Source: Clostridia bacterium (GTDB taxonomy: Bacteria > Bacillota > Clostridia > UMGS1840). From it: DNA of 64,000 nt. Positions 1,667-43,444 of this stretch are shown in pieces. Position numbers and translations under genes: made by a program. The DNA lies in NCBI GenBank assembly GCA_017936745.1, contig JAGBEY010000011.1:8498-72497 (forward strand), read 5' to 3'. Positions within the stretch are counted from its first letter, which is position 1. Every line of letters begins with the position of its first letter. A model generated the notes under the pieces. That model saw only the letters and a program-made list of their open reading frames with translations, was not told where the DNA came from and did no database searches.

Positions 1667-3766
1667 TTAGAAAATCAGCTTGGAAACCGTTGCGATTACA
1701 AAGCAGATAAAAAATCCGATTACTGTAGGAAGAAGTGCCGAAATTACGGTCCATTTCACACTGTTTGTTTCTTTCTTTATGGTGATAAGTGTAGTGGAAC
1801 AGGGCCAGTGAAACAAAGAAAATACCATGGTGCAAAGTGCTGTGATTTGTGTCCAGCCGTTTTGTAACAGAATTTGTTTCAAGGAGAGTAAGTCCGAAGC
1901 ATCGGTCAGACTTCCGTGAGAAAGATATGCCATCAGCATTATCGGAATCACAATTTCATTGGCGGGAAGTCCTAATAAAAAGGCAGTAAGAATCACCCCA
2001 TCCAATCCGAACCATCTTGCAAACGGATCAAACCATCCGCTGAGATAAGACAAAATAGTTTGCGAACCGATTTCTACATTGGCACAAAGCCATAGCACAA
2101 GCCCTGCCGGTGCGGCTACTGCCAGTGCACGTCCTAATACAAATACCGTTCTGTCCAACATGGAACGAATGAGAATTTTTCCGATTTTTGGTTTTCGGTA
2201 GGGCGGAAGCTCCAGTGTGAAGGAGGAGGGATGCCCTCGCAATAAGGTTTTGGATAACAGATAAGACACCGCAAATGTCATCCCGATTCCTGCTGTTACA
2301 GTTAAGGTTAAACAAAATGCCTGCCATAAAGAAGAATATGGAGAGGTAATGGCAAAAAACATAGAAATCATAGCGATTAGAGTCGGAAACCGACCGTTAC
2401 ATGGCACAAAGCTGTTGGTGAGAATGGCAAGTAACCGTTCTCTCGGAGAGTCAATAATCCGACATCCTACTACGCCCACTGCATTGCAGCCAAAGCCCAT
2501 ACACATGGTAAGTGCCTGCTTTCCGCAGGCTTTACAGCATTGGAAGGCTTTGTCTAAATTAAAGGCAATCCGAGGTAAATATCCCAAATCTTCCAAAAGG
2601 GTAAACAGCGGAAAGAAAATTGCCATAGGAGGAAGCATAACGGATACAATCCAGCCGACCACACGGAAAATTCCGGCACAAAGCAGAGAACAAAGCCACG
2701 GAGGGAGTCCAATGGAAACACACCCTGCAAAAAGGAGCTGCTCTCCGTGGGAAAACAAAGAAGAAAGAAGCTGCGACGGATAATTTGCTCCCGTAATAGT
2801 CAGCCAGAAAATGCCGGCAAACAACAGTAACATCAAAGGAATTCCGGTGAGCTTTCCAGTCAGGAGTCGGTCGATGATACGGTCTCTTTTTTCGTAATTT
2901 TCATCCTCGAAGGTGACTACATCCCTTGCAATTTGTTCTCCCTGTGTCACCAAGGCGGTGGCAACGGTGTCCCGATAGGTATTTTGGGTAAAGTTATGGC
3001 TTCTGAGCAGACTTTTTGCATGGAGAAAGGCGGTGGATATTCCGGCGTCATTAGAAAACTCAAGCGGAAGAACTTCGTCCTCCAAAAGCTTTCGCGCCCT
3101 TTGACGTGTGTAACGAAGTGTATCCCCGGGAAGATATGTAGCAAGAGCAGAAATTGCTTCTTCAATAGGGTCAGGATAGGTAACACAATAAGCAGACTCC
3201 GATGGATGTTGAAGCATTCGCTCCAGTGTTTCCATTAAATTCGGAAGTCCCGTTTTGTTTTTGGCACTGGTTGTTACCACGGGGACACCTAATTTTTGCG
3301 ATAACGCATCAGTGTCAATTCGGATTTTCTTTTTATTTGCTTCATCCATTAGATTGACACACACCACAACCCGATGAGTAATTTCCAATATTTGCAGCAC
3401 CAGATTCAGATTCCGTTCCAGGCAGGTGGCATCGCATACTACAATCACACCGTCCGGATTACCGTAGCATAAAAAATCCCGTGCTGCCTCCTCCTCGGGG
3501 GAATGGGAGAGCAGGGAATAGGTTCCCGGGATGTCAACCAAAATGTAATTGCGATTGTGGTAGGTACAGACTCCGCGCGCATTGGTGACCGTTTTTCCGG
3601 GCCAGTTTCCCGTATGCTGGTGCATCCCGGTCAGTGCATTGAATACGGTGCTTTTTCCTACGTTCGGGTTTCCTGCCAGACCGATTATAAGGTCGTTATC
3701 GCTTTTTGTTTGAACAATAAAATCCGAAGCTGCGGAAGCAGAAAGCTGATTTCTCATAAGCATCAA
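1667..3766 (-). CDS. feoB: ferrous iron transport protein B
   Basis: N-terminal G-domain GNPNVGKSTVFNALTG and DIPGTYSL, followed by a polytopic membrane domain. 699 aa, with feoA directly upstream. Confidence 0.95.
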   Translation of the reverse strand: MMLMRNQLSASAASDFIVQTKSDNDLIIGLAGNPNVGKSTVFNALTGMHQHTGNWPGKTVTNARGVCTYHNRNYILVDIPGTYSLLSHSPEEEAARDFLCYGNPDGVIVVCDATCLERNLNLVLQILEITHRVVVCVNLMDEANKKKIRIDTDALSQKLGVPVVTTSAKNKTGLPNLMETLERMLQHPSESAYCVTYPDPIEEAISALATYLPGDTLRYTRQRARKLLEDEVLPLEFSNDAGISTAFLHAKSLLRSHNFTQNTYRDTVATALVTQGEQIARDVVTFEDENYEKRDRIIDRLLTGKLTGIPLMLLLFAGIFWLTITGANYPSQLLSSLFSHGEQLLFAGCVSIGLPPWLCSLLCAGIFRVVGWIVSVMLPPMAIFFPLFTLLEDLGYLPRIAFNLDKAFQCCKACGKQALTMCMGFGCNAVGVVGCRIIDSPRERLLAILTNSFVPCNGRFPTLIAMISMFFAITSPYSSLWQAFCLTLTVTAGIGMTFAVSYLLSKTLLRGHPSSFTLELPPYRKPKIGKILIRSMLDRTVFVLGRALAVAAPAGLVLWLCANVEIGSQTILSYLSGWFDPFARWFGLDGVILTAFLLGLPANEIVIPIMLMAYLSHGSLTDASDLLSLKQILLQNGWTQITALCTMVFSLFHWPCSTTLITIKKETNSVKWTVISALLPTVIGFFICFVIATVSKLIF

Positions 3767-3830
3767 ATCCTTTCGTTTAAATTTTCAGAAAGAAAATGCA
3801 GGGCTTTTTTGAAAGAAAACCCTGCATTAT

Positions 3831-4064
3831 TCAAGGATTCATTAAAATGGTTTCGGAGTCTTTTTTACGGAGTGCAATGAGTGCACCGCGTATCCGATAT
3901 GCCACAGGATCTCCGGCGGGACTTTTCAGCACACATTCTATTTGTGTTCCCGGAATGATTCCCAAATCCTGCAACCTTCGCCGCATAGTACCCGAGGTGA
4001 GAATTTTAAGAACCGTTGCGTTTTGTCCCATAGGAAGCTGTGACAGCGGAAATATGAAATCCAT
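3831..4064 (-). CDS. feoA: FeoA family iron transport accessory protein
   Basis: 77-aa SH3-like FeoA pattern (LSQLPMGQNATVLKI...RRRLQDLGIIPGTQIE), immediately upstream of feoB. Confidence 0.85.
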   Translation of the reverse strand: MDFIFPLSQLPMGQNATVLKILTSGTMRRRLQDLGIIPGTQIECVLKSPAGDPVAYRIRGALIALRKKDSETILMNP

Positions 4065-4161
4065 AATAGCAACCTCCGGATTGGGAATTTCTTTGGAAAG
4101 TGTTTCCTGCTTTTAATATATGAAAAAAAAGAGAAACTGTGAAAATCTTCCGAAAAAAGAC

Positions 4162-4190
4162 TTGCACTTTCTTATGAAAAGTTGTATAAT
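4162..4190 (+). promoter_or_regulatory. sigma-A-type promoter
   Basis: TTGCAC, 17-nt spacer, TATAAT, about 30 nt upstream of the 4222 CDS. Confidence 0.55.
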
Positions 4191-4221
4191 AAAACTATTC
4201 TGATAAAGTGAGGTTGAAACG

Positions 4222-5109
4222 ATGGAATATGTTTTAGAATATCAAGGAATGAAAGCAATCTGTACCACTACCGGAGCGGAGCTTGTTTCCCTTACCAAAG
4301 ATGGTGGCAGAGAAGTAATCTGGCAAGGGGATGAAACCTATTGGAACGGTCGTAACCCCAATTTATTTCCCATTGTCTGCAGCTTGAAAAACTCCAAAAC
4401 CGTAATCAACGGCGTGGAGTACACCATTCCCAAGCATGGCTTTGTAAGACGAAAAGAATTTGAACTGGTGGAAAAAACTGATAAAAGCATCACCTTTTTA
4501 TATCGTGATAACGAAGAAACCAAACAGCATTATCCCTTTTCGTTCCGGTTTTATGTCACCCATACTTTGACGGAAGATGGGTTTATTACTGAGTATCGCG
4601 TGGAAAATACCGATAAACAGACCATGCTTTTTGGTCTTGGCGGTCACACTGCCTATAATTGCCCTATGAAAGAAGGAGATTCTTTTACCGATTACGAAAT
4701 TCGTTTTTCTGAAACGGAAACTCATCCTGTTTACCAGTGTGTTGCGGAGGATTTAGGCGGGCTGTTATATGAAAGAGGCATCCGCAAGGAATATGAAAAT
4801 GTGTCTGTAATTCCGTTGAAATACGATATTTTTGATTTGGATGCCCTGATGTTTTCCAAGCTCAATTCTAAAAAAATACAGTTGATTCATCAGTCGGGAG
4901 ACTATGGGGTAGAGGTGGAAGTAGACGGTTTTTCCTGCCTGGGAATCTGGACTCCCATAAAAAAAGAAGCACCGTTTTTGTGTATTGAGCCATGGACCAT
5001 TATTCCTGATAAAGAAGACACCACGGGCGTATTTTCCGAGAAACCTAATATCACTGCTTTGGAAGCAGGAAAATCCAAAACCTATTCTTATCGGGTTCGG
5101 TTGATATAG
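4222..5109 (+). CDS. aldose 1-epimerase family protein
   Basis: Mutarotase-like motifs (NLFPIVCSLKN, PKHGFVRRKEFELV, GGHTAY). 295 aa. Confidence 0.75.
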   Translation: MEYVLEYQGMKAICTTTGAELVSLTKDGGREVIWQGDETYWNGRNPNLFPIVCSLKNSKTVINGVEYTIPKHGFVRRKEFELVEKTDKSITFLYRDNEETKQHYPFSFRFYVTHTLTEDGFITEYRVENTDKQTMLFGLGGHTAYNCPMKEGDSFTDYEIRFSETETHPVYQCVAEDLGGLLYERGIRKEYENVSVIPLKYDIFDLDALMFSKLNSKKIQLIHQSGDYGVEVEVDGFSCLGIWTPIKKEAPFLCIEPWTIIPDKEDTTGVFSEKPNITALEAGKSKTYSYRVRLI

Positions 5110-5123
5110 AAAGTGAGACGTAT

Positions 5124-5894
5124 ATGGTAACAAAATATCCCTTCTGGGTTTTGAAAAGTGATGCACGGCGATTGCTGAAAGGCAAGTGGAATGCCGTGGT
5201 GCTGTCCTTGTTTATTCCTTTTTTGCTTTACGTTATTCTGGCAGTAAAACTGGCACAGGCGGTGCCGCAAAATGCATCGGCTGTTCAGCTTGAAAAAATT
5301 ATGATGATACAGTATGCAGGCACCATTGGCTTTTCTGTCTTATTGGAGCTTATTATGGTTGGAATTTTTCGCAATCTTCAGCCAAATCAGGAAAAGGCAA
5401 GCTGCCTGAATATTTACGCTGTGGGATTTGGAAGCTTTTTCAAATTACTTCCCACGATGCTCATTACATTGGGAGTCCCCTTTGTGTGCAATCTGCTGCT
5501 GTCCTCTGATTCGGTAACCAAATTTTATGATTATCTGATGTTCAGCCTGATGAGTATTGAGGTCTATGGCGTTCTGGTACAGCTTGTATCCTTATTTCTT
5601 GAGCTTTTTATGCTGTATCTGACGCTTTCTCTCACAATGGTTCCTTGTATCTTGGCAAATCATCCGACATATGGTGGAATCCGGTTGATAAAGGAAAGCT
5701 TTTCTCTGATGAAGGGAAACCGCTTGTATTTTGTCGCTTTCAGCTTCAGCTTTGTTGGGTGGATTCTTTTGGGCAGTTTGGCATTTACCATCGGTATTTT
5801 ATGGGCATTGGCTTATATGATGGCGGCACAGTATGCTTATTATCGCCGTCTTGCTTTTGAGGCAGAATCAGTGATTGATGTCAATGAAATTTAA
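5124..5894 (+). CDS. DUF975-family integral membrane protein
   Basis: N-terminus ...ARRLLKGKWNAVVLSLFIPFLL followed by multiple hydrophobic spans, typical of DUF975. Confidence 0.6.
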   Translation: MVTKYPFWVLKSDARRLLKGKWNAVVLSLFIPFLLYVILAVKLAQAVPQNASAVQLEKIMMIQYAGTIGFSVLLELIMVGIFRNLQPNQEKASCLNIYAVGFGSFFKLLPTMLITLGVPFVCNLLLSSDSVTKFYDYLMFSLMSIEVYGVLVQLVSLFLELFMLYLTLSLTMVPCILANHPTYGGIRLIKESFSLMKGNRLYFVAFSFSFVGWILLGSLAFTIGILWALAYMMAAQYAYYRRLAFEAESVIDVNEI

Positions 5895-5898
5895 GAAA

Positions 5899-5933
5899 AA
5901 CAACCTCTGAATAGATAGGTTCAGAGGTTGTTT
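5899..5933. terminator. bidirectional rho-independent terminator
   Basis: Stem AACAACCTCTGAA/TTCAGAGGTTGTT with flanking A and T runs, between convergent genes. Confidence 0.8.
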
Positions 5934-5937
5934 TGTT

Positions 5938-6483
5938 TTATGCTTCAAACAGCTTCCCAAGTACCGTTGCGGCAGTGGTAGTCAGCTTTTTTTCTGTGTC
6001 TCCCAAGGTGGTGTGTATATCGGTGGAATATAAAATTACAGAGCCAATAACATCTCCCTCGGAAATAATAGGAACAACTGTGCCGCAAAGATAATCATTG
6101 TTGCGGTCCAGAAGATGAAGTCTGGAGTCGGAAAGATTTGTCACAAAATAGGGTTCTCGGTTTTGCAGAACCGTCTCAATTTCGGAAGAAATTTTCTGGT
6201 CGGTCAGTTCTTTTTTTCCTGCCCCCGCCGCACAGATAATGGTATCTGTGTCAGTAATTACTGTGTTGTGACCGCTGATTTTATATAACGCGTCTGCATA
6301 TTGGGAGGCAAAGTTTCCAAGCTCACCAACGGCTGAATATTTTTTGAAAATTACTTCGCCTTCTTTATTGGTGAAAATTTCCAGCGGGTCGCCTTCACGG
6401 ATTCTCATAGTACGGCGGATTTCCTTTGGTATTACTACACGACCAAGGTCGTCTATTCTTCTAACAATTCCTGTTGCTTTCAT
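5938..6483 (-). CDS. spoVT: stage V sporulation protein T (AbrB-family regulator)
   Basis: AbrB/SpoVT N-terminus MKATGIVRRIDDLGRVVIPKEIRRTMRIREGDPLEIF plus a GAF-like C-terminal domain. 181 aa. Confidence 0.9.
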   Translation of the reverse strand: MKATGIVRRIDDLGRVVIPKEIRRTMRIREGDPLEIFTNKEGEVIFKKYSAVGELGNFASQYADALYKISGHNTVITDTDTIICAAGAGKKELTDQKISSEIETVLQNREPYFVTNLSDSRLHLLDRNNDYLCGTVVPIISEGDVIGSVILYSTDIHTTLGDTEKKLTTTAATVLGKLFEA

Positions 6484-6589
6484 ATATAAATTGCTCCTTT
6501 TTGTTTTTTGTTACGAGCTTATTATTTGCAACTGTGGAATTTTTATGTAAGGAAAAAGGTGGGAAATCAATTTATGAAAATTTTTATAG

Positions 6590-6618
6590 ATTGACAAGAA
6601 AAGAAGGGAATGTTATAA
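6590..6618 (+). promoter_or_regulatory. consensus sigma-A promoter with no CDS downstream
   Basis: TTGACA, exactly 17 nt, TATAAT. The next credible CDS on this strand is about 390 nt away. Confidence 0.6.
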
Positions 6619-6624
6619 TTGGCA

Positions 6625-6745
6625 TATACAGAATTTTATTTTATAAAATTCTTAAAAGTCTGACGGCTTTCTGTAGTCTTTCAGCCTGCGTATGCCAATT
6701 GACGGCGTCGTAAAAATGCCCTTGCAAGCAAGCATTTTTACTCCT
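6625..6745 (+). ncRNA. candidate small structured RNA or leader (family unknown)
   Basis: Lies just downstream of the consensus promoter. Closing helix is GGCATA...TATGCC. Inside is a perfect 9-bp hairpin, GAATTTTAT/ATAAAATTC. The 3' hairpin AAAAATGC..GCATTTTT is followed by T residues. Confidence 0.25.
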
Positions 6746-6755
6746 GGTAGAATGA

Positions 6756-6797
6756 GTTGCATCTTTTCTATCACCTGATTATATAATGAGATTTATA
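6756..6797 (+). repeat. repeat module P, copy 1 (promoter-like: TTGCAT ... TATAAT GAGATT)
   Basis: About 35 nt are shared with 14948-14983: TTGCAT.TTTCT..C.TGATTAT.ATATAATGAGATT. Confidence 0.7.
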
Positions 6798-6896
6798 CTA
6801 TATCGAGTTTTTTGTAAAACGAAAAACAAATCGAATTTACAAAGTAAAAATAACGAGCCATCAAGGATTTCGTATCGGCAGATTTTTTGTTCCTGT

Positions 6897-6943
6897 CTTG
6901 ACACCAAAAAGGTTTGCATCTAAACCTTATGCCTCGCAATTAA
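6897..6943 (+). repeat. repeat module A, copy 1
   Basis: CTTGACACCAAAAAGGTTTGCATCTAAACCTTATGcCTCGCAATTAA is near-identical to 9055-9101. It contains the hairpin AGGTTT/AAACCT. Confidence 0.85.
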
Positions 6944-7004
6944 GTATTGTATGAAAAAGTCAGGAACAAAGAATAGACAAACAAGAATTTGGAGAGGGGA
7001 TTGT

Positions 7005-7136
7005 ATGGATAAAGAAACTCAAAAATGGCTTGCTATTATTAGCATATCTATCGCAGTAATAGTTATTTTAATACTCTTGCTTTCGGGATATGAACTTAGT
7101 GGATTTGAAATACATAGAGGGATTAAGATTAACTAA
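7005..7136 (+). CDS. small single-pass membrane protein (43 aa)
   Basis: RBS GGAGAGGGGA lies 5 nt before ATG 7005. Sequence MDKETQKWLAIISISIAVIVILILLLSGY has one TM segment. Confidence 0.45.
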   Translation: MDKETQKWLAIISISIAVIVILILLLSGYELSGFEIHRGIKIN

Positions 7137-7154
7137 GTTCCAATTTGTTGGCAG

Positions 7155-7211
7155 TTTTTTTGTTCTAATTTAATATGAGCTACATGGATATGTCGAATGA
7201 TGTCGAAAGGA
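7155..7211 (+). repeat. repeat module B, copy 1
   Basis: TTTTTTTGTTCTAATTTAATATGAGCTACATGGATATGTCGAATGATGTCGAAAGGA matches 8607-8662 with few substitutions. Confidence 0.85.
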
Positions 7212-7213
7212 AA

Positions 7214-7262
7214 AGCCTCCCTTGCCTAAAGGGAGGGGGACCACCGAAGGTGGTGGAGGGAT
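7214..7262. repeat. left inverted repeat framing the DUF559 gene
   Basis: AGCCTCCCTTGCCTAAAGGGAGG (7214-7236) is the exact reverse complement of 7638-7660. GGAGGGAT (7255-7262) pairs with ATCCCTCC (7612-7619). Confidence 0.9.
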
Positions 7263-7264
7263 AT

Positions 7265-7648
7265 ATGGATAGAAAACATAACACCAATTTAACAACTAAT
7301 GCAAGAATGTTGCGTAAGAATATGACAAAAGAAGAACGACATCTCTGGTATGATTTCTTGAAAAGTTATCCTGTTAGATTTTTAAGACAAAAAGTAATTG
7401 ATAATTACATAGTTGATTTTTATTGTCATAGTGCTAGATTAATCATTGAACTTGATGGCTCACAACATTACGAAGAAAAAGGATTAGTGAAAGACGAAAT
7501 CAGAACTGAAAGAATAGAACAACGAAATCTAACAGTTATCCGAATACCTAACAATGAGGTTAACAGAAATTTTGAGGGGGTTTGTCAATATATTGATATT
7601 GCGGTAAAAGAATCCCTCCGTCAGTCTGCGACTGCCACCTCCCTTTAG
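7265..7648 (+). CDS. DUF559 endonuclease-domain protein (Vsr-like fold family)
   Basis: Motifs MTKEERHLWYDFLK...FLRQKVIDNYIVDFYCHSARLIIELDGSQH. RBS GGAGGG precedes ATG 7265. The listed start at 7175 only translates repeat B and the left inverted repeat. Confidence 0.8.
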   Translation: MDRKHNTNLTTNARMLRKNMTKEERHLWYDFLKSYPVRFLRQKVIDNYIVDFYCHSARLIIELDGSQHYEEKGLVKDEIRTERIEQRNLTVIRIPNNEVNRNFEGVCQYIDIAVKESLRQSATATSL

Positions 7649-7660
7649 GCAAGGGAGGCT
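7612..7660. repeat. right inverted repeat framing the DUF559 gene
   Basis: Reverse complement of 7214-7262, with a divergent central ~17 nt. It encodes the C-terminal tail of the ORF. Confidence 0.9.
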
Positions 7661-7665
7661 AAGCT

Positions 7666-7714
7666 GCATCTAAACCTTATGTGTCGCAATATGGATATGT
7701 CGAAAATTGACGAA
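7666..7714 (+). repeat. hybrid repeat: module A core fused to the 3' half of module B
   Basis: GCATCTAAACCTTATGTGTCGCAAT (A core) is directly followed by ATGGATATGTCGAAAATTGACGAA (B 3' half). Confidence 0.8.
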
Positions 7715-7723
7715 TAAATAAAG

Positions 7724-7839
7724 CCTTCCCCTTGAGGGGAAGGTGGCAGCGAAGCTGACGGATGAGGTGGAACAGAATAACGATTGCATTCGCAATCTAC
7801 ACCTCACCACCGCCTACGGCGGAGCCTCTCCTCAGAGAG
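7724..7839 (+). repeat. cluster of five GC-rich hairpins
   Basis: CCTTCCCC..GGGGAAGG. GAGGTG...CACCTC enclosing GATTGC..GCAATC. CCGCC..GGCGG. CTCTC..GAGAG. GC-rich within an AT-rich context. Confidence 0.7.
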
Positions 7840-7862
7840 AAGCCTTTGAAAGGAGCAAGAAA

Positions 7863-8606
7863 ATGAAACCAAAAATAATTGCATTGATTGGTGTAGTGCT
7901 TACTGTATATGGGTTAATATTATGTGTCGTGTCAAACTTAAATCTTGGCGTTGTGCTTGTTGTATTTTTGGGCATTGCCACATTGTGTACAGGTGTTTTC
8001 TATTCAAAGATAAAGAGAATGACAACTATAAAAATTTTTAAGCTTTGCAAAATTTTATTTGTTTTGTTTTTATGTGTCGAAGCTGCATTGATATCTTTTA
8101 TAGCAATTTACGGATATTCTGATAATATGGATTATAAAGAAGATGCGGTTATTGTTTTAGGTGCGGGTATTCGTGGTGATAGGGTGACGCTACCATTAAA
8201 AATGCGTTTGGATAAAGCAATAGAATATCATTATAAAAATCCGGACGCTTTCATCGTTGTTACCGGCGGACAAGGATTGCAGGAAACCGTCACCGAGGCT
8301 TATGCGATGGAAAAATATCTTGTGCAAAACGGAGTGGATAACAGCAGAATTCTTAAAGAAGAAAAAGCAACCTCTACATTTGAAAATATGAAATATTCAA
8401 AAGAAATACTTGATAATTGTTTTACAAATGACTATTCGGTAGTGGTTATAACAAATAATTTTCATGTTTTTCGAGGAACGACCATAGCAAAAAATACAGG
8501 CTTCAAAGACGTTACTCATATGCACGCAGGCTTACAATGGTATAATCTTATGCCTTGTTTTCTAAGAGAAAGCCTTGCGGTAATAAAAATGATAATTTTG
8601 GGATGA
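7863..8606 (+). CDS. YdcF/DUF218 (ElyC/SanA-like) family membrane-anchored protein
   Basis: RBS AAAGGAG precedes ATG 7863. N-terminal TM helices, then a DUF218 core (AVIVLGAGIRGD, VVTGGQG..ETVTEAYAM..YL, ITNNFH). Confidence 0.7.
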   Translation: MKPKIIALIGVVLTVYGLILCVVSNLNLGVVLVVFLGIATLCTGVFYSKIKRMTTIKIFKLCKILFVLFLCVEAALISFIAIYGYSDNMDYKEDAVIVLGAGIRGDRVTLPLKMRLDKAIEYHYKNPDAFIVVTGGQGLQETVTEAYAMEKYLVQNGVDNSRILKEEKATSTFENMKYSKEILDNCFTNDYSVVVITNNFHVFRGTTIAKNTGFKDVTHMHAGLQWYNLMPCFLRESLAVIKMIILG

Positions 8607-8662
8607 TTTTATGTTCTAACTTAATACGAGATACATGGAGATGTCGAATGTTGTCGAAAGGA
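8607..8662 (+). repeat. repeat module B, copy 2
   Basis: Starts directly after the ydcF-like stop. TTTTATGTTCTAACTTAATACGAGATACATGGAGATGTCGAATGTTGTCGAAAGGA. Confidence 0.85.
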
Positions 8663-8671
8663 GGCGATAGT

Positions 8672-9043
8672 GTGAAAAGGGTTTTTAGAAAATTTAGAAA
8701 AGAGAAACGAATAATTCCCCCAATGCCTGAATGGAATGAGATTGTTGAAATGCTTTATGACAAAAATCTTGATTTTTTAGATTCAACAGTAGAGGAAGTT
8801 ATATATTCAAAAGATAAGTCAAAAAGATATGTTGTCTTAAAAAGTGATAAAGGTTTCTTTACCTATCGTCTTGAGAAAATATATCAGCTTAACGAAGATG
8901 AATGAAGTTATAGATGCAGTTTTGATTTAACACCAGCATTCTGGCAGGATGTCGATAATGGAAGTAAGTCGATTTTTTCTACTTTGGAAGATGCCTTAAA
9001 AGAATTGAAACAAGAAGCAGAATATAAGTTTTTTTATTCCTAA
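8672..9043 (+). pseudogene. small cytoplasmic protein gene interrupted by an in-frame TGA at 8903-8905
   Basis: RBS AAGGAGG lies 8 nt before GTG 8672. After the TGA the same frame stays open for 45 more protein-like codons (SYRCSFDLTPAFWQDVDNG...KELKQEAEYKFFYS) up to TAA 9041-9043. Confidence 0.5.
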
Positions 9044-9054
9044 CCTGACACGAA

Positions 9055-9101
9055 CTTGACACCAAAAAGGTTTGCATCTAAACCTTATGTGTCGCAATTA
9101 A
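9055..9101 (+). repeat. repeat module A, copy 2
   Basis: CTTGACACCAAAAAGGTTTGCATCTAAACCTTATGTGTCGCAATTAA. Confidence 0.85.
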
Positions 9102-9162
9102 TGAATTTGTATGGCAAGCGTATTGAATAGGGAAAATCAATGATAATGAGGGAGGAAATACT

Positions 9163-9516
9163 ATGATTACTGTAAGAACTATATTTTCGGAAATTTCTTT
9201 TGACCAATATAAAGAGTATGCCATTTATTTTGAGTCTTACGAGGCAGACCGATACGGTCGTCCGTTATCACCGGATTCGGAGGAGGTAAAAAACGGACAA
9301 TATTATGATTTTGGTCATATTATTATCGAAACCGAAACAAAAAAATACGCTTTGAAATGTGTATATGAACCCTATCAGTGGGTGGCAGAGCTTCTCGACT
9401 ACATAGATGCACACCGTGAGGAGGAACATCTTCTTTTGGATATGTCACGATTGATGAAATCAGGAGACGATTTTGTAGAATTTGAATGCAGCGATTGTTG
9501 TGTCAGTAAGATATAA
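9163..9516 (+). CDS. hypothetical small acidic protein (117 aa)
   Basis: RBS GAGGGAGG lies upstream, with a terminator downstream. No recognisable motif. Confidence 0.5.
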   Translation: MITVRTIFSEISFDQYKEYAIYFESYEADRYGRPLSPDSEEVKNGQYYDFGHIIIETETKKYALKCVYEPYQWVAELLDYIDAHREEEHLLLDMSRLMKSGDDFVEFECSDCCVSKI

Positions 9517-9531
9517 AAATGATTGAAAAAT

Positions 9532-9575
9532 AAGTAAAAGCCCGGCAAAACAATAATTTTACCGGGCTTTTACTT
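9532..9575. terminator. bidirectional rho-independent terminator
   Basis: 14-bp stem AAGTAAAAGCCCGG/CCGGGCTTTTACTT overlapping the stop of the convergent AraC gene. Confidence 0.75.
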
Positions 9576-10437
9576 ATTCATTTGCTTCTTTACGTAATTC
9601 GTTTGGTGTTTTGTTGTAATATTTTTTAAAGGCAACGAAGAAACCGTTGGTTCTGCTGTAGCCGCATTTTTCTGCAATGTTTGTAACAGAAAGGTTGGTG
9701 TGCTGCAGAAGCGTTTTTGCATAGTTCATTTTCATCATTGCGATTCGTTCACTGAAAGATTGAGAATACAATTTCTTTATGATTCTTTGTGTCTGTTGGG
9801 GACTCAGATTCAAAAGCTCTGCTAAATTTTCCAGAGAACCGTTATGGAATTTGTTTACAAAATAGTCGTCAATGATATAGTTACGGGAATGATTGGTGTT
9901 GGTGAGGATATCGGAGGGTAACAGTTTTTGATCATCAAATTTTGTTACCTTCATCAGTGCGACAATTTCGTGCAGACAAGAGGTGATAAGCTCGTCTTTT
10001 TCAATATAATCACTTTGGAAGTATCTGGCACATCGGTGAAATGCATGAGAACCCATGAAAGCCTCCAGCACGGTTACATCCTCGTTGAGAATTTCACAAA
10101 AGGATTCATAATAGCTGGAATTGGAAACCTTGGGGTTTTTCTCTATGGTGAACACCATGGAAAACCGCATGGATTCTGCATGGAGAAATGTAGAATGAAA
10201 CACTCCGGGGGCGAGAATCACCGTGTCTTTTTCATGGAAATCTCGTTCTTGTGTTTCGGTAGCTATGGTGATGCTTCCGCGTAACACATGAAACAGCTCA
10301 TAAAATTTGTGAGAATGCAGTGTGGTATCTGAGACCTGCTGACGGGAAACAGCAGTGATATCCGAGAAAAATACAAAATCGGCATTTCCGATGCTGATGC
10401 GATACTCCTGGTAATTTTTATACAGGAAACTTTTCAT
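9574..10437 (-). CDS. AraC-family transcriptional regulator (cupin N-domain plus HTH)
   Basis: C-terminal AraC HTH (NIAEKCGYSRTNGFFVAFKKYYNKTPNELR) and an N-terminal cupin-like domain (HSHKFYELFHVLRG). Confidence 0.85.
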   Translation of the reverse strand: MKSFLYKNYQEYRISIGNADFVFFSDITAVSRQQVSDTTLHSHKFYELFHVLRGSITIATETQERDFHEKDTVILAPGVFHSTFLHAESMRFSMVFTIEKNPKVSNSSYYESFCEILNEDVTVLEAFMGSHAFHRCARYFQSDYIEKDELITSCLHEIVALMKVTKFDDQKLLPSDILTNTNHSRNYIIDDYFVNKFHNGSLENLAELLNLSPQQTQRIIKKLYSQSFSERIAMMKMNYAKTLLQHTNLSVTNIAEKCGYSRTNGFFVAFKKYYNKTPNELRKEANE

Positions 10438-14947: not shown

Positions 14948-14983
14948 CTTGCATTTTCTCGCTGATTATGATATAATGAGATT
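14948..14983 (+). repeat. repeat module P, copy 2 (TTGCAT-17-TATAAT promoter-like)
   Basis: CTTGCATTTTCTCGCTGATTATGATATAATGAGATT is shared with 6756-6797. Confidence 0.7.
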
Positions 14984-14989
14984 GCAAGG

Positions 14990-15063
14990 CAATTCAATTC
15001 ATGTTGCGATAGCAACAATTCATGGCTTTAGCCAATTCATGACAACGAAGTTGTCAATTCATT
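14990..15063 (+). repeat. array of CAATTCAT(G/T) 9-mers alternating with three different short hairpins
   Basis: 9-mers at 14995, 15016, 15033 and 15055, plus a partial copy at 14990. Intervening hairpins are GTTGC/GCAAC, GGCT/AGCC and GACAAC/GTTGTC. Confidence 0.8.
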
Positions 15064-15086
15064 AAAAAGGTTTGGCATCTAAATCG
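15064..15086 (+). repeat. repeat module A, degenerate copy
   Basis: AAAAAGGTTTGGCATCTAAATCG compared with AAAAAGGTTTGCATCTAAACC. Confidence 0.55.
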
Positions 15087-15106
15087 TTCACTGATTTTAG
15101 TAAGAC

Positions 15107-15126
15107 TGTCGAATATTGTCGAAAGG
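15107..15126 (+). repeat. 3' half of repeat module B
   Basis: TGTCGAATATTGTCGAAAGG. Confidence 0.7.
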
Positions 15127-15136
15127 TGTGTACAAA

Positions 15137-15619
15137 TTGAAACGAATATTAAGTCATTATTGTGGAGTTTTTGTAACACTATACTTTTATATAACAATTG
15201 GACTTTTGTCTTATTTATTGCGAAATCAATTATTAAATGGTTGTATAGAAATTTTTGCATTCTCTTTGCCAATTGTTTCGGGAGTAATTACATTTATATT
15301 TTTGAAGAGTTATAACTTAAAAGATTTTTTTAAAAGGTGTTTTAGATATCTATGGATGTCTTTATTAACATTTGTAATTCTTGAAATAATTATAAGATTG
15401 TATCAGTCGCTTTTTTTGTACTTTCTTGGTGCGGTTTGGGCGACAGATGTTCAATTAGGATTGGGAGAAATATTTTTACTTGTTGTTTCTGAACTGGTGC
15501 ATTTGGGGTTATGTATAACTGGAATGATAGTTTCAGGGAGTGTATCTTTTTACAGACAAATAAAAATTAAACAAAGTAAAGCGACGAGCTTCGTGGAAAG
15601 GAAAGCTAACTGTGAGTAA
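15137..15619 (+). CDS. hypothetical polytopic membrane protein
   Basis: 4-5 hydrophobic spans and AT-rich. Start is uncertain: TTG 15137, placed 8 nt after AAAGGTG, or TTG 15116. Confidence 0.5.
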   Translation: MKRILSHYCGVFVTLYFYITIGLLSYLLRNQLLNGCIEIFAFSLPIVSGVITFIFLKSYNLKDFFKRCFRYLWMSLLTFVILEIIIRLYQSLFLYFLGAVWATDVQLGLGEIFLLVVSELVHLGLCITGMIVSGSVSFYRQIKIKQSKATSFVERKANCE

Positions 15620-15986
15620 AAAAATCCTTTTTGAAACTGCAACAAAATATTTGCTTTATTTTAATGTAATATTTATTATAGGATACACCGTTTTCGTATT
15701 GATGGATAGTGTATGGTCTAATGCTGCTGCGAGTTTATTGGTACATAAATTATTGAAGTATTTTATTTTAGCGTTTGTAATTGCAGGTGCTATGGTTGTG
15801 CATTATCTAATTACAAAAAATGCGTCTAAAATTAATATTGCTAATACAATTGTACTTGTATTGTTGTGTACTGCAGAATATTCAATTTATAATTCTAAAT
15901 TATATCCTATGCATTATATTGTATATGTGTATTATATTATATCATTTGTAATATGTATGGGAAAGTTTTTAATTAGAGAATTTTGA
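15612..15986 (+). CDS. hypothetical polytopic membrane protein (124 aa)
   Basis: GTG start overlaps the upstream stop. RBS GGAAAGGAAAG. Four hydrophobic spans. Confidence 0.5.
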   Translation: MSKKILFETATKYLLYFNVIFIIGYTVFVLMDSVWSNAAASLLVHKLLKYFILAFVIAGAMVVHYLITKNASKINIANTIVLVLLCTAEYSIYNSKLYPMHYIVYVYYIISFVICMGKFLIREF

Positions 15987-16013
15987 TTTAAGCATATTAT
16001 AGAATTATAGATA

Positions 16014-16040
16014 TTTTTTTGGTTTTAACATAATACGAGC
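16014..16040 (+). repeat. 5' half of repeat module B (no 3' half follows)
   Basis: TTTTTTTGGTTTTAACATAATACGAGC compared with TTTTTTTGTTCTAAYTTAATAYGAGM. Confidence 0.6.
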
Positions 16041-16146
16041 GAGTGCTAATACAGACTGGCATCCAGATTATACAGTCTTTATATAATAAATTAAAATATT
16101 GATTTACCAAGATAAAATAAAGACCATCTGAATAAGGAGGCAATCT

Positions 16147-16983
16147 ATGCTGAAAAAGATGTTTTCTTTCCTTTTGGTAGTTTTGATGCTATCATCCGTG
16201 ACTGCATTTGCCATAGATACTTATGGCGGTTATGATGTCCCCGTTGATATTGAAATAAACGGCAGCCTGATTCAGTGTGATCAAAAACCCGTGTTAATTG
16301 ATTCCACCACTTATATTCCGTTGCGTGCTTTTTCTGATGCTATTGGCGGTACAATTGGCTGGAATGCTGAAAAAAAAGAAGCAACTATGGAAAAAGGGGG
16401 ACACAGCTTTTTGTTTTCGCCCGAAACAAATACTTGTGTGATTGATGGCATAGAAGAAGGATATGCCTCTGTAATTTACAGAAGCAGGACTATGATTCCC
16501 GTTCGAGCCGTATCAGAAACCCTTGGATATGATGTGGAATGGGATGATTTTTATTTGACTGTGAAAATTACCGCACCGGGTGTTGAAATTCCGGAGGAGT
16601 GTCGGGACACATCCTACACCTATGAGGATATTTTGTATCTTGGGAAAATCACACGAATTGAAAGCGGATACCAGCATTTTGAAGTGCAACTGGGAGTTGC
16701 TGCAACGGTGATGAACCGGGTAAGGTCTCCTCAATTTCCCAATTCTGTAAAGGATGTTATCTTTGATAGCAAATATGGCGTTCAGTTTCCGCCGGCTCAT
16801 ACCGACAAATTTAATACAATGCCCTCAAAGGAAAGCATCATTGCTGCAAAATGTGCTCTGAATGGTGCCAATAATGTGGGAAATTCTCTTTATTTTATTG
16901 ATACCAAGCATGCGGCATCCTCTTGGGCACATCATCACAGACCGTATTACGGAGCTGTATATGATATGTCTTTTTATGAGTAG
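16147..16983 (+). CDS. secreted cell-wall hydrolase (copper-amine-oxidase-like N-domain plus SleB-type hydrolase domain)
   Basis: Signal peptide. Stalk domain (TTYIPLRAFSDAIGGTIGWN). C-terminal Hydrolase_2 motifs (GVAATVMNRVRSPQFPNSVKDVIF...QFPP). Confidence 0.75.
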   Translation: MLKKMFSFLLVVLMLSSVTAFAIDTYGGYDVPVDIEINGSLIQCDQKPVLIDSTTYIPLRAFSDAIGGTIGWNAEKKEATMEKGGHSFLFSPETNTCVIDGIEEGYASVIYRSRTMIPVRAVSETLGYDVEWDDFYLTVKITAPGVEIPEECRDTSYTYEDILYLGKITRIESGYQHFEVQLGVAATVMNRVRSPQFPNSVKDVIFDSKYGVQFPPAHTDKFNTMPSKESIIAAKCALNGANNVGNSLYFIDTKHAASSWAHHHRPYYGAVYDMSFYE

Positions 16984-30417: not shown

Positions 30418-30469
30418 TCCAGTGAAAATTGAATATCTTCACACAAAGTGTTGATGATGCCGCAAAAGC

Positions 30470-30665
30470 TTTTTTGGGCCAGGTGTCATCGGTGAAAAAG
30501 GGAATGGGGTGAGAATCCCCTGCGGTTAAACTGTCGGTGTGTGCATCGAAGTTTTTGTATCCGTTGGCGAAAGCCGGTCATTGGGAAACTGAGAAGGCAG
30601 GATACAAAAATGCGGACTTTTCGTCTATATGATGCGAGTCACAAGACCTGCTTTGATGTTATCTC
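30470..30665 (+). promoter_or_regulatory. cobalamin (AdoCbl-type) riboswitch aptamer
   Basis: Conserved core GGTGAAAAAGGGAATGGGGTGAGAATCCCCTGCGG...CTGTCGG and a B12-box-like GGTCATTGGGAAACTGAGAAGGCAGG. Confidence 0.8.
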
Positions 30666-30743
30666 GTAAGTGCAACTTTTGCATAGAGATAATGTTTTTG
30701 GTTTCTTGCAAACCAAATTGTGATTCATCACAGAAAAACTCAG

Positions 30744-43367: not shown

Positions 43368-43382
43368 GTGGCAGGGGCAGTA
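43368..43382. repeat. proximal direct repeat (att-like) within the tRNA-Trp 3' end
   Basis: GTGGCAGGGGCAGTA is identical to 38727-38741. Confidence 0.8.
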
Positions 43383-43444
43383 GGATTTGAACCCACGACT
43401 TACAGTTTTGGAGACTGTCGCTCTACCAGCTGAACTATACCCCT
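43369..43444 (-). tRNA. tRNA-Trp (anticodon CCA)
   Basis: 76-nt cloverleaf. Acceptor AGGGGTA/TGCCCCT, D arm GTTC/GAGC, anticodon stem ACAGT/ACTGT with loop CTCCAAA, T arm GTGGG-TTCAAAT-CCTAC, and an encoded CCA. Confidence 0.95.

Follow-up and report, generated by a model that had tools for sequence, protein, structure and literature searches.

Integrons are the textbook route for collecting and shuffling single genes. Their attC sites are imperfect palindromes that fold as single-stranded hairpins and are conserved in structure, and their cassettes rely on one Pc promoter. To our knowledge, integrons are essentially absent from Firmicutes. Among short intergenic repeats, the pneumococcal BOX elements (boxA-boxB-boxC) and the bacterial interspersed mosaic elements (BIMEs) of enterobacteria are hairpin or palindromic units without obligatory gene polarity. 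Here we describe a composite junction element that separates one-gene cassettes in a 64-kb stretch of DNA from a Clostridia bacterium (GenBank assembly GCA_017936745.1, contig JAGBEY010000011.1, positions 8,498 to 72,497 of the forward strand; hereafter, the window) and in many related genomes. We regard it as about an even call that the element is a portable promoter-leader module of gut Clostridia that doubles as a recombination joint for the exchange of one-gene cassettes.

The recombinase-associated acquired interbacterial defence clusters (rAID-1) of Bacteroidales are defined by a 5' XerD-like recombinase, with two or more co-directional genes of low GC downstream, and their intergenic repeats have been called 'reminiscent of integrons' (Ross et al., bioRxiv 10.1101/471110). 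Putative mobile promoters are stretches of 50-100 nt with at least 80% identity that lie upstream of non-homologous genes within and between genomes (PMC3488235). Literature searches on DUF559 mobility, on the motif strings reported below, and on integron-like arrays in Firmicutes gave no earlier description of the present arrays. The array under study lies at 6756-9575 of the window. The original prediction described it as a set of small unrelated genes separated by two repeats, A and B, and by an A/B hybrid, in an organization likened to integrons and to rAID-type arrays.

Results

Both repeats were found where they had been reported. The A copies at 6897-6943 and 9055-9101 are 96% identical, with a third copy of the 26-nt A core at 7665-7690, and the B copies at 7145-7211 and 8596-8662 are 84% identical, with the B core also at 7691-7714. 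With up to three mismatches allowed, the 26-nt cores occur three times (A) and twice (B) in the window, where 100 shuffles gave an expectation of 0.00. Public collections were then searched with a 24-nt pattern for A and a degenerate 24-nt pattern for the 3' block that we call TAIL; patterns of 17 nt had given 78 and 6 matches in viral_contigs, mostly by chance, and the longer ones were used thereafter. The related loci that were collected, about 150, each cut at 8 kb, amount to about 1.1 Mb.

Aligned side by side, the instances show that A and B, which had been taken for separate repeats, are sub-modules of one composite element of about 100 nt, with the 5' to 3' order HEAD, A-tract spacer, A and/or A', and TAIL. 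HEAD (TTTTTnGTYCTRACTTGAYAYGAAC) carries TTGACA-type direct repeats, and the spacer between HEAD and A ends in an A-tract (..CC AAAAA GG..). A is TTGCATCTAAACCTTATGnnTCGCAAT, of the form TTGCAT-17-CAATAT; the optional A' is TGGCATCTAGATTATACAGTCTTTATAAT, of the form TGGCAT-17-TATAAT; and TAIL (ATGGATATGTCGAAwnwTGwCGAAAGGAG) is a conserved leader-like block that ends in an extended Shine-Dalgarno sequence. The names used previously are resolved by this anatomy: the 'hybrid' is the canonical A-TAIL, 'B' is the short HEAD-TAIL form, and 'A' is HEAD-A without TAIL. The hybrid at 7665-7714 does exist, A-TAIL being the commonest architecture elsewhere.

The collected loci hold 269 copies of A, 200 of HEAD, 187 of TAIL, and 60 of A', while the reversed-sequence control gave four matches, all to HEAD. 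These modules make up 396 composite elements with few architectures, namely A-TAIL (64), A (63), HEAD-A (54), HEAD-A-TAIL (53), HEAD (38), TAIL (32), HEAD-TAIL (32), and about 60 with A'. Conservation is block-like, with the A-tract directly 5' of TTGCAT. In 51 elements that precede unrelated genes, column identity averages 79% across 111 columns and is much higher in the A-TAIL part of about 55 nt.

The element has a fixed polarity and a precise position between genes. HEAD starts 0-8 nt past the stop codon of the previous cassette in 85% of 103 cases, with a mode of 2-3 nt, and TAIL ends a median of 13-14 nt 5' of the start codon, its final bases (GAAAGGAG) being the ribosome-binding site. 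An ORF (open reading frame) on the same strand, with a Shine-Dalgarno sequence, follows 338 of the 396 elements. The median interval between elements is 493 nt (n = 238), and 79% of the intervals are at least 70% filled by one forward ORF; reverse-oriented ORFs are limited to two candidates. The long HEAD (TTTTTTGTTCTAACTTGACACGAACTTGACA, e.g. 9029-9066) has stops in all three forward frames, so that any ORF entering HEAD terminates; these stops may be incidental in AT-rich sequence. The segments directly 5' of A are of several types, each a short direct-repeat pair around a small inverted repeat (ATATCGA...ATATCGA or CAATTCAT...CAATTCAT; 6788-6882 and 14986-15060 in the window, L100, L111, L115, L156, L217, L221, and others), and they could be alternative upstream regulator sites.

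A conserved DNA or RNA fold, which the original prediction had proposed to look for, was not seen. The RNAalifold consensus of 51 long forms had an energy of 0 and 0 pairs, and DNA folding of six elements on both strands gave z values from +0.2 to -1.8, not better than shuffles. By eye, the HEAD-A spacer often resembles a small hairpin (C-rich, AAAA, G-rich), but its registers shift. The earlier remark that the repeats do not look like attC sites thus holds for these six elements on either strand.

The element is conserved across species. The TAIL pattern is present in 86 stretches from about 65-70 species-representative metagenome-assembled genomes (MAGs; our own count from 80 listed accessions), nearly all of them Clostridia, Oscillospiraceae, or Eubacteriales MAGs from the guts of goat, deer, buffalo, sheep, and other animals. 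Among metagenome contigs, 60 carry the A pattern, and as many as five copies lie within 3.9 kb. For either pattern, we estimate well under one chance match. There are several arrays per genome, on several contigs, and in the loci of at most 8 kb they reach eight consecutive, co-oriented one-gene cassettes. Hundreds of module copies in dozens of species were thus found in the search of related genomes, and the suspicion that the modules might occur only at this locus can be set aside.

The proteins encoded downstream, 338 in all and with a median length of 149 aa, were grouped into 216 families, mostly ORFans. Most of the recurrent families are without a Pfam match. RDD, DUF2691, and WapI-like immunity proteins account for a few (WapI-like in 3 of 150 family representatives), and some cassettes hold enzymes of ordinary kinds, among them HAD, histidine phosphatase, and M15 or M20 peptidases. 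The GC content of cassette ORFs is 33.0%, compared with 40.6% for flanking ORFs, and the cassette value is the lower one in 82 of 96 loci. The element was not matched by blastn against 50,697 phage and 72,556 plasmid records. The only true A copy in the viral collection is at 52-89 of an IMG/VR contig (L084), at the contig end, 24 nt 5' of the gene for a 376-aa secreted protein; it is probably host or prophage-flank DNA.

To locate the cassette boundaries, the mean nucleotide identity of same-family genes from different loci was compared with the background of unrelated pairs. The first and last 60 nt of the genes are 79% identical within families, against 34-39% in the background. Upstream of the gene, identity is 77% at -18 to -1 (background 52%), 72% at -45 to -19 (47%), 52% at -80 to -46 (43%), and 40% at -120 to -81 (34%); downstream, it is 66% at +1 to +32 (39%), 62% at +33 to +55 (42%), 52% at +56 to +90 (38%), and 38% at +91 to +125 (33%). 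Flank identity is therefore high from about -45 to +55 and has fallen to the background level at about -120 and +125. The spacer on the 5' side of A shows linkage to the upstream gene (0.64 vs 0.52) but none to the downstream gene (0.47 vs 0.46), whereas the sequence on the 3' side shows linkage to the downstream gene (0.69 vs 0.46) but none to the upstream gene (0.38 vs 0.46). Since the linkage switches inside A, the inherited unit is TAIL, gene, HEAD, and spacer. Orthologous genes are preceded by long, short, or A' forms, which shows that HEAD can also be joined after its GAAC, A after its TCGCAAT, and TAIL at its end. The recombination point that had been put at a fixed internal position, before ATGGAKATGTCGAA, is real, but it is only one among several module junctions.

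Single cassettes have been exchanged between species. Among homologous cassette pairs from different species, 17 of 105 have at least 97% DNA identity. An all-against-all comparison of species-representative loci gave 32 shared segments of at least 250 nt and at least 93% identity. Exactly one whole cassette ORF is contained in 24 of them and two in none (0/32). Both ends are in a module or within 12 nt of one in 23 of the 32, and ends fall in A 27 times, in TAIL 18 times, and in HEAD seven times. The cassettes of one locus, L121, are each closest to a different genome (L168, L174, L136, and L120). A strain variant, L003, is 98% identical to the window as far as CTTGACA in HEAD; past this breakpoint, its junction and its DUF559 allele differ from those of the window, and the gene for a 43-aa protein, the first cassette of the window, is missing. 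Exact-protein look-ups of SpoVT, AraC, and the 117-aa protein of the last cassette returned mostly the same strain, and only L003 was informative. In this variant, the gene content between modules is not invariant, and it differs from the first cassette onward with a break inside HEAD, as a presence/absence polymorphism of cassettes should. The gene-cassette organization inferred from one locus is therefore borne out in many species, with up to eight co-oriented single-ORF units and with single cassettes swapped between species.

What is the function of the conserved core? In the alignments, A and A' share a register, T(T/G)GCAT, 17 nt, and CAATAT or TATAAT; both are 4 nt 5' of ATGTCGAA, and an A-tract precedes both. 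The clear promoters of the genome itself have TTGACA or TTGCAn, 17 nt, and TATAAT, and they include the promoter-like module P at the head of the array and its second copy. Of 94 elements without A, 73 are internal to arrays. In five of the 21 that open arrays, a sigma-70-type promoter lies in the preceding 110 nt (e.g. L103 and L171), and in L103 the TATAAT abuts TAIL. Because of this promoter-like anatomy and the placement of the A-less forms, the best reading of TAIL is a transcribed 5' leader, and that of A or A' is a promoter core; we infer promoter and leader activity for the element from these features.

Two other readings of the element were rejected. In a comparison by eye, A, A', and TAIL do not fit the consensus sequences for sigma-G/F, sigma-E/K, sigma-H/ComX, extracytoplasmic function (ECF) sigma factors, or sigma-54 in both hexamers and spacing, which we give only as a lead. 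TAIL as a leader peptide (ATG GAT ATG TCG ...) was dismissed by inspection, as its variable positions are not biased toward synonymous ones and no Shine-Dalgarno sequence precedes it. A separate conserved leader, R, of about 100-120 nt and ending in ..GGTTCTTATTATTCACTGTTCTCC, is located 5' of array-opening short-form elements, before the first HEAD-TAIL, in L113, L119, L121, L128, L130, L151, L162, and L205. It has no Rfam match in the loci scanned.

The original prediction noted that no recombinase lies within the window and advised looking for a linked one. A phmmer search with E. coli XerD (E ≤ 1) found no tyrosine recombinase among the ORFs of at least 100 aa in the window, in agreement with that remark, nor in the approximately 150 related loci. 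The query was validated on the PDB, where it gave 1A0P at 2e-190 and detected IntI4 at 4e-22. Large serine recombinases are present in two loci only, L119 and L149; in L119, three tandem large serine recombinase genes (2868-7406) stand beside a cassette array. There is no conserved neighbour among the flanking ORFs of at least 170 aa, since 382 of them form 336 clusters with at most four members, and their Pfam content is ordinary chromosomal. No dyad symmetry was seen in A by inspection. As a candidate Xer/dif-like site, A has TTATG in common with the XerD arm of dif, but it was rejected for the same lack of dyad symmetry.

The commonest cassette, with 17 members, is DUF559. In the window, the DUF559 unit (7211-7662, + strand) consists of a PD-(D/E)xK-type nuclease gene (ORF 7265-7648; Pfam DUF559, E = 5e-29) between GC-rich hairpins. 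The outer hairpins at 7214-7239 and 7635-7660 are 26-nt inverted repeats, 96% complementary, and the same hairpin ends are found in 17 DUF559 cassettes of other species. The order of parts is TAIL, a GC-rich hairpin, a second hairpin, the unit's own Shine-Dalgarno sequence, the gene, a pair of hairpins, TTTGAAAGG, and finally either A or a ribosome-binding site. A second, hairpin-flanked stretch without a gene, 7721-7847 (+ strand; about 130 nt), is a relative of the ends of the DUF559 unit. It is inserted after TAIL, ahead of the ribosome-binding site (GAAAGGAG, 7848-7855) that serves the next gene. It has 13 relatives in other species, 77-94% identical over 128-138 nt (L197, L189, L184, L097, L157, L173, L120, L160, L204, L165, L091, L148, and L151), always in the slot bounded by TAIL on one side and by the following A or ribosome-binding site on the other. 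The consensus of this gene-less element folds with -51.7 kcal/mol; its ends pair mutually, and some stems have compensatory changes. The DUF559 unit thus looks like something separate from the junction element, a putative autonomous element with a partner that resembles a miniature inverted-repeat transposable element (MITE). Its mobility, and a role for it in cassette shuffling, are speculation.

The remaining features of the window are as follows, on the + strand except for the terminator. The array lies between spoVT (divergent) and two AraC-type regulators (convergent). As had been noticed, the gene region is AT-rich, with 31-37% GC against about 40-44% in the flanks, the exception being the GC-hairpin stretch at about 7500-7950 with about 43-44%. 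Module P (6757-6787), which heads the array, reads as a sigma-70-type promoter, with TTGCAT at 6757-6762, a spacer of 17-19 nt, and TATATAAT at 6780-6787. P recurs at 14949-14985, again in the TATAATGAGATT context, at the head of another array, and it is kept in L003; a search with its own pattern gave no match in other species, so that P is not seen as a general array header. Overlapping P is a sequence, U (6591-6790), with a perfect TTGACA-17-TATAAT promoter followed by about 150 nt of hairpin-rich sequence. There is a copy in L163, again 5' of an array, two tandem copies by unrelated genes in L126, and partial ones in L189 and L094. The differences in the U stems look compensatory, it has no Rfam match, and a small RNA or leader of an unknown kind is one possibility.

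By sequence comparison, P is followed by module X (6788-6882), a repeat-bearing spacer before the first junction element; X-like stretches are found directly 5' of A in L217, L110, L163, L221, L120, L156, L170, L111, and L137. Junction element 1 (6883-6940; nhmmer E = 2e-12) contains A copy 1, with a shortened HEAD at 6883-6903, an A-tract spacer at 6904-6913, and A at 6914-6940 (TTGCAT-17-CAATTA), and has no TAIL. Cassette gene 1 (7006-7136), the one missing in L003, is called as a 43-aa single-pass membrane protein. Junction element 2 (7154-7207), the first B copy, is a short form with HEAD at about 7154-7180 and TAIL at 7184-7207 and no A; it precedes the DUF559 unit. Junction element 3 (7665-7714; E = 4e-17) is the canonical A-TAIL, with A at 7665-7690 and TAIL at 7691-7714. 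After the gene-less element comes cassette gene 3 (7863-8606), for a membrane-anchored DUF218 (YdcF-like) protein (Pfam, E = 1e-27); its homologue in L121 is directly after TAIL, without the inserted hairpin element.

Junction element 4 (8607-8664), the second B copy, begins at the base directly after the DUF218 stop codon, as originally reported, and has HEAD at 8607-8631, TAIL at 8635-8658, and an AGGAGG ribosome-binding site at 8659-8664. The DUF559 and DUF218 identities assigned earlier were confirmed by Pfam, but the next gene, described as a small protein, is on translation a larger ORF of 123 codons (8672-9042) with an in-frame TGA at 8903-8905 and its final TAA within the next HEAD. 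The TGA is also present in a 100%-identical contig (L001), and this gene 4 is a nonsense mutant or pseudogene. Junction element 5 (9029-9098; E = 2e-20), A copy 2, has HEAD at 9029-9055, a spacer, and A at 9073-9098, without TAIL. Cassette gene 5 (9163-9516) encodes a 117-aa ORFan, whose sole match among 5.8 billion clustered proteins is itself. No Pfam family was found for the 43-aa, 77-aa, and 117-aa ORFs, nor for gene 4. The terminator predicted to close the array was found as a terminator-like hairpin (9529-9578, no strand assigned) common to the array end and the convergent AraC gene.

A second small array is found at 14949-16146. After its P copy, it has an A'-like unit and TAIL at 15060-15129, two membrane ORFs (about 15116-15619 and 15612-15986), and a final HEAD (16014-16040) and A' (16058-16083) 5' of the gene for a SleB-like cell-wall hydrolase (16147-16983). 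At the gathering score, Rfam gave only a tRNA and a cobalamin riboswitch in the whole window, both outside the array, and at E ≤ 5 the region 6400-9700 gave only chance-level matches. The two matches at the gathering score are an ordinary cobalamin riboswitch and a tRNA-Trp gene, at 30449-30669 and 43369-43444, unrelated to the arrays.

Discussion

We propose that the element would supply a promoter, a leader, and a ribosome-binding site to any ORF placed behind it. The nearly invariant blocks of 25-55 nt would at the same time be shared homology between all cassettes, across species. As the same blocks lie between all cassettes, recombination in them, mostly within A, would move single ORFs between arrays and genomes, and the outcome would be mosaic arrays of AT-rich accessory genes. 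We favour homology-driven recombination, possibly aided by a nuclease.

Several points weigh against this proposal. The identical blocks, at 17-26 nt, are short for RecA-type recombination, and the lack of any shared segment with two cassettes suits a one-at-a-time mechanism better than generic homologous exchange. The promoter function is read from sequence resemblance. The CAATAT -10 of A is weak and is completed by the first bases of TAIL, so A without TAIL loses the final T of the -10 (e.g. CAATTA, 6935-6940). In A, even the 17-nt spacer hardly varies, which plain sigma-70 would not require, and so another protein may read A. HEAD is inherited with the upstream gene, which is not what one would expect of a site that activates the next gene from upstream. 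A simple scan found no sigma-70-type promoter within 110 nt upstream of 16 of the 21 array-opening A-less elements, which weakens the case for a dependence of the A-less forms on an upstream promoter; at least five of these 16, plus L205 (scored promoter-positive), follow leader R. Finally, the loci were gathered through module searches, and the counts are conditional on the presence of the element.

Could the arrays instead be the work of a dedicated site-specific system, an integron analogue with its recombinase elsewhere in the genome? A would then be the attachment site, and circles of TAIL, gene, HEAD, and spacer would form by A x A recombination and reinsert at any A. The switch of linkage inside A would be expected, as would segments that share one cassette and never two and that end most often in A. 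At about 26-29 nt, nearly invariant with its spacer included, A has the size of a simple recombination site, and the arrays are co-oriented, AT-rich, and ORFan-rich, as in integrons and rAID-1 (10.1101/471110). The sharing of single cassettes only keeps the idea of a trans-encoded enzyme alive. Yet no tyrosine recombinase was detected in the window or the related loci, the flanking genes are not conserved, large serine recombinases are confined to two loci, A lacks dyad symmetry, and the elements have neither a fold nor a consensus structure. Junctions of the types HEAD|TAIL, A|A', and TAIL|SD (Shine-Dalgarno) also occur, for which a single crossover site is inadequate, and there are several arrays per genome. 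We consider such a system possible but unlikely.

A related suggestion, which we make tentatively and do not expect to be correct, is a new cassette-capture system of gut Clostridia, integron-like in its working but built of other parts. The promoter-bearing, asymmetric A would be the cut-and-paste site of an enzyme acting in trans, for which the DUF559 nuclease is a candidate; by breaking junctions, it would lead to gene conversion of one cassette. With promoter and leader built into the attachment site, every gene would be expressed as soon as it was captured.

In place of a promoter, the element could act at the RNA level in polycistronic transcripts, as a signal for processing, stability, or translation, or as the target of an RNA-binding regulator on the UGUCGAA-N3-UGUCGAA repeat. 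TAIL is directly 5' of the Shine-Dalgarno sequence and strictly in the sense direction, the short forms are without the promoter-like core, and P is a good sigma-70-type promoter that opens the arrays at 6757-6787 and 14949-14985 and could drive a whole array. We think this improbable, given the absence of a consensus structure in 51 long forms with RNAalifold, the lack of Rfam matches at gathering or permissive thresholds, and the near-consensus TGGCAT-17-TATAAT of A'. It would also leave the cassette boundaries and the interspecies breakpoints in A unexplained.

More improbable still is that the modules are selfish interspersed mosaic repeats of the BOX, BIME, or MITE kind, which settle in intergenic gaps and have no role for their neighbours, so that the arrays would merely be repeat-rich regions. 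The element is indeed modular, mosaic, and spread over several contigs per genome, and a true MITE-like element is present in the same arrays. But HEAD, A, and TAIL have neither terminal inverted repeats nor folding potential, the placement from stop codon to Shine-Dalgarno sequence is exact, the gene polarity is nearly absolute, TAIL itself provides the ribosome-binding site, and there was no match in the phage or plasmid collections. That the repeats arose by simple local duplication, or are alike by chance at this locus only, is refuted by the 0.00 chance matches expected in the window and by the hundreds of copies in dozens of species.

How does this locus compare with described systems? 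The DUF559 unit, and only that unit, resembles the pairs of repetitive extragenic palindromes and their associated tyrosine transposases (REP/RAYT), or of autonomous elements and MITEs, in that a nuclease-type gene lies in GC-rich palindromic inverted repeats and shorter gene-less copies have the same ends. The enzyme here is DUF559 (PD-(D/E)xK, Vsr-like) and not a Y1 transposase, the mobility is putative, and the unit is always in one junction slot, with TAIL in front and A or a ribosome-binding site behind. With BOX and BIMEs, the junction element shares short modules in a few mosaic intergenic architectures, but it is unfolded, strictly gene-sense, and runs from stop codon to Shine-Dalgarno sequence. 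The A-TAIL region has the features by which putative mobile promoters are defined (Matus-Garcia, Nijveen, and van Passel 2012; PMC3488235), its promoter activity being predicted. Compared with the repeats defined there, this one also delimits exchanged cassettes and forms long tandem arrays, with a fixed grammar and a very large family in dozens of species.

Like rAID-1, the arrays consist of co-directional small genes with GC below that of the genome and with repetitive intergenic sequence, and a part of their content is putatively of the immunity type (WapI-like). Orphan immunity genes dominate the content of rAID-1; for the present cassettes, an immunity role is putative. They differ in the absence of a XerD-like recombinase, in the host phylum, and in their cassettes, which encode mostly ORFans or membrane proteins and some ordinary enzymes.

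The likeness to integrons, including clusters of attC sites lacking integron-integrases (CALINs), is closer in layout. Cassettes are in tandem, co-oriented, mostly of a single ORF, unrelated, and largely of unknown function; a repeat within which the gene linkage switches stands at each junction; and cassettes are common to several species, with a content that varies between strains. The differences are in the machinery. No tyrosine recombinase is nearby in the window and the related loci, and the junction repeat is neither an imperfect palindrome nor folding, but is conserved in sequence. There are several arrays per genome, and most junctions have their own promoter-like core and ribosome-binding site, with P also heading both arrays of the window. 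The analogy drawn in the original prediction thus stands for the organization and not for the machinery: with the cassette layout present and the defining machinery of integrons and rAID-1 (tyrosine recombinase, attC-like fold) not found in the window and the related loci, the arrays are integron-like in organization.

If our proposal is correct, the element would be a simple means of keeping acquired genes expressed and exchangeable. The A-TAIL sequence is a tag with which this flexible gene pool can be retrieved from metagenomes, and the junctions are concrete sites for testing new recombination or nuclease activity. In outcome, the arrays are like integrons and rAID-1, while being members of neither family, and this outcome is reached in a widespread group of uncultured Clostridia of ruminant and other animal guts without a linked integrase or attC hairpins.

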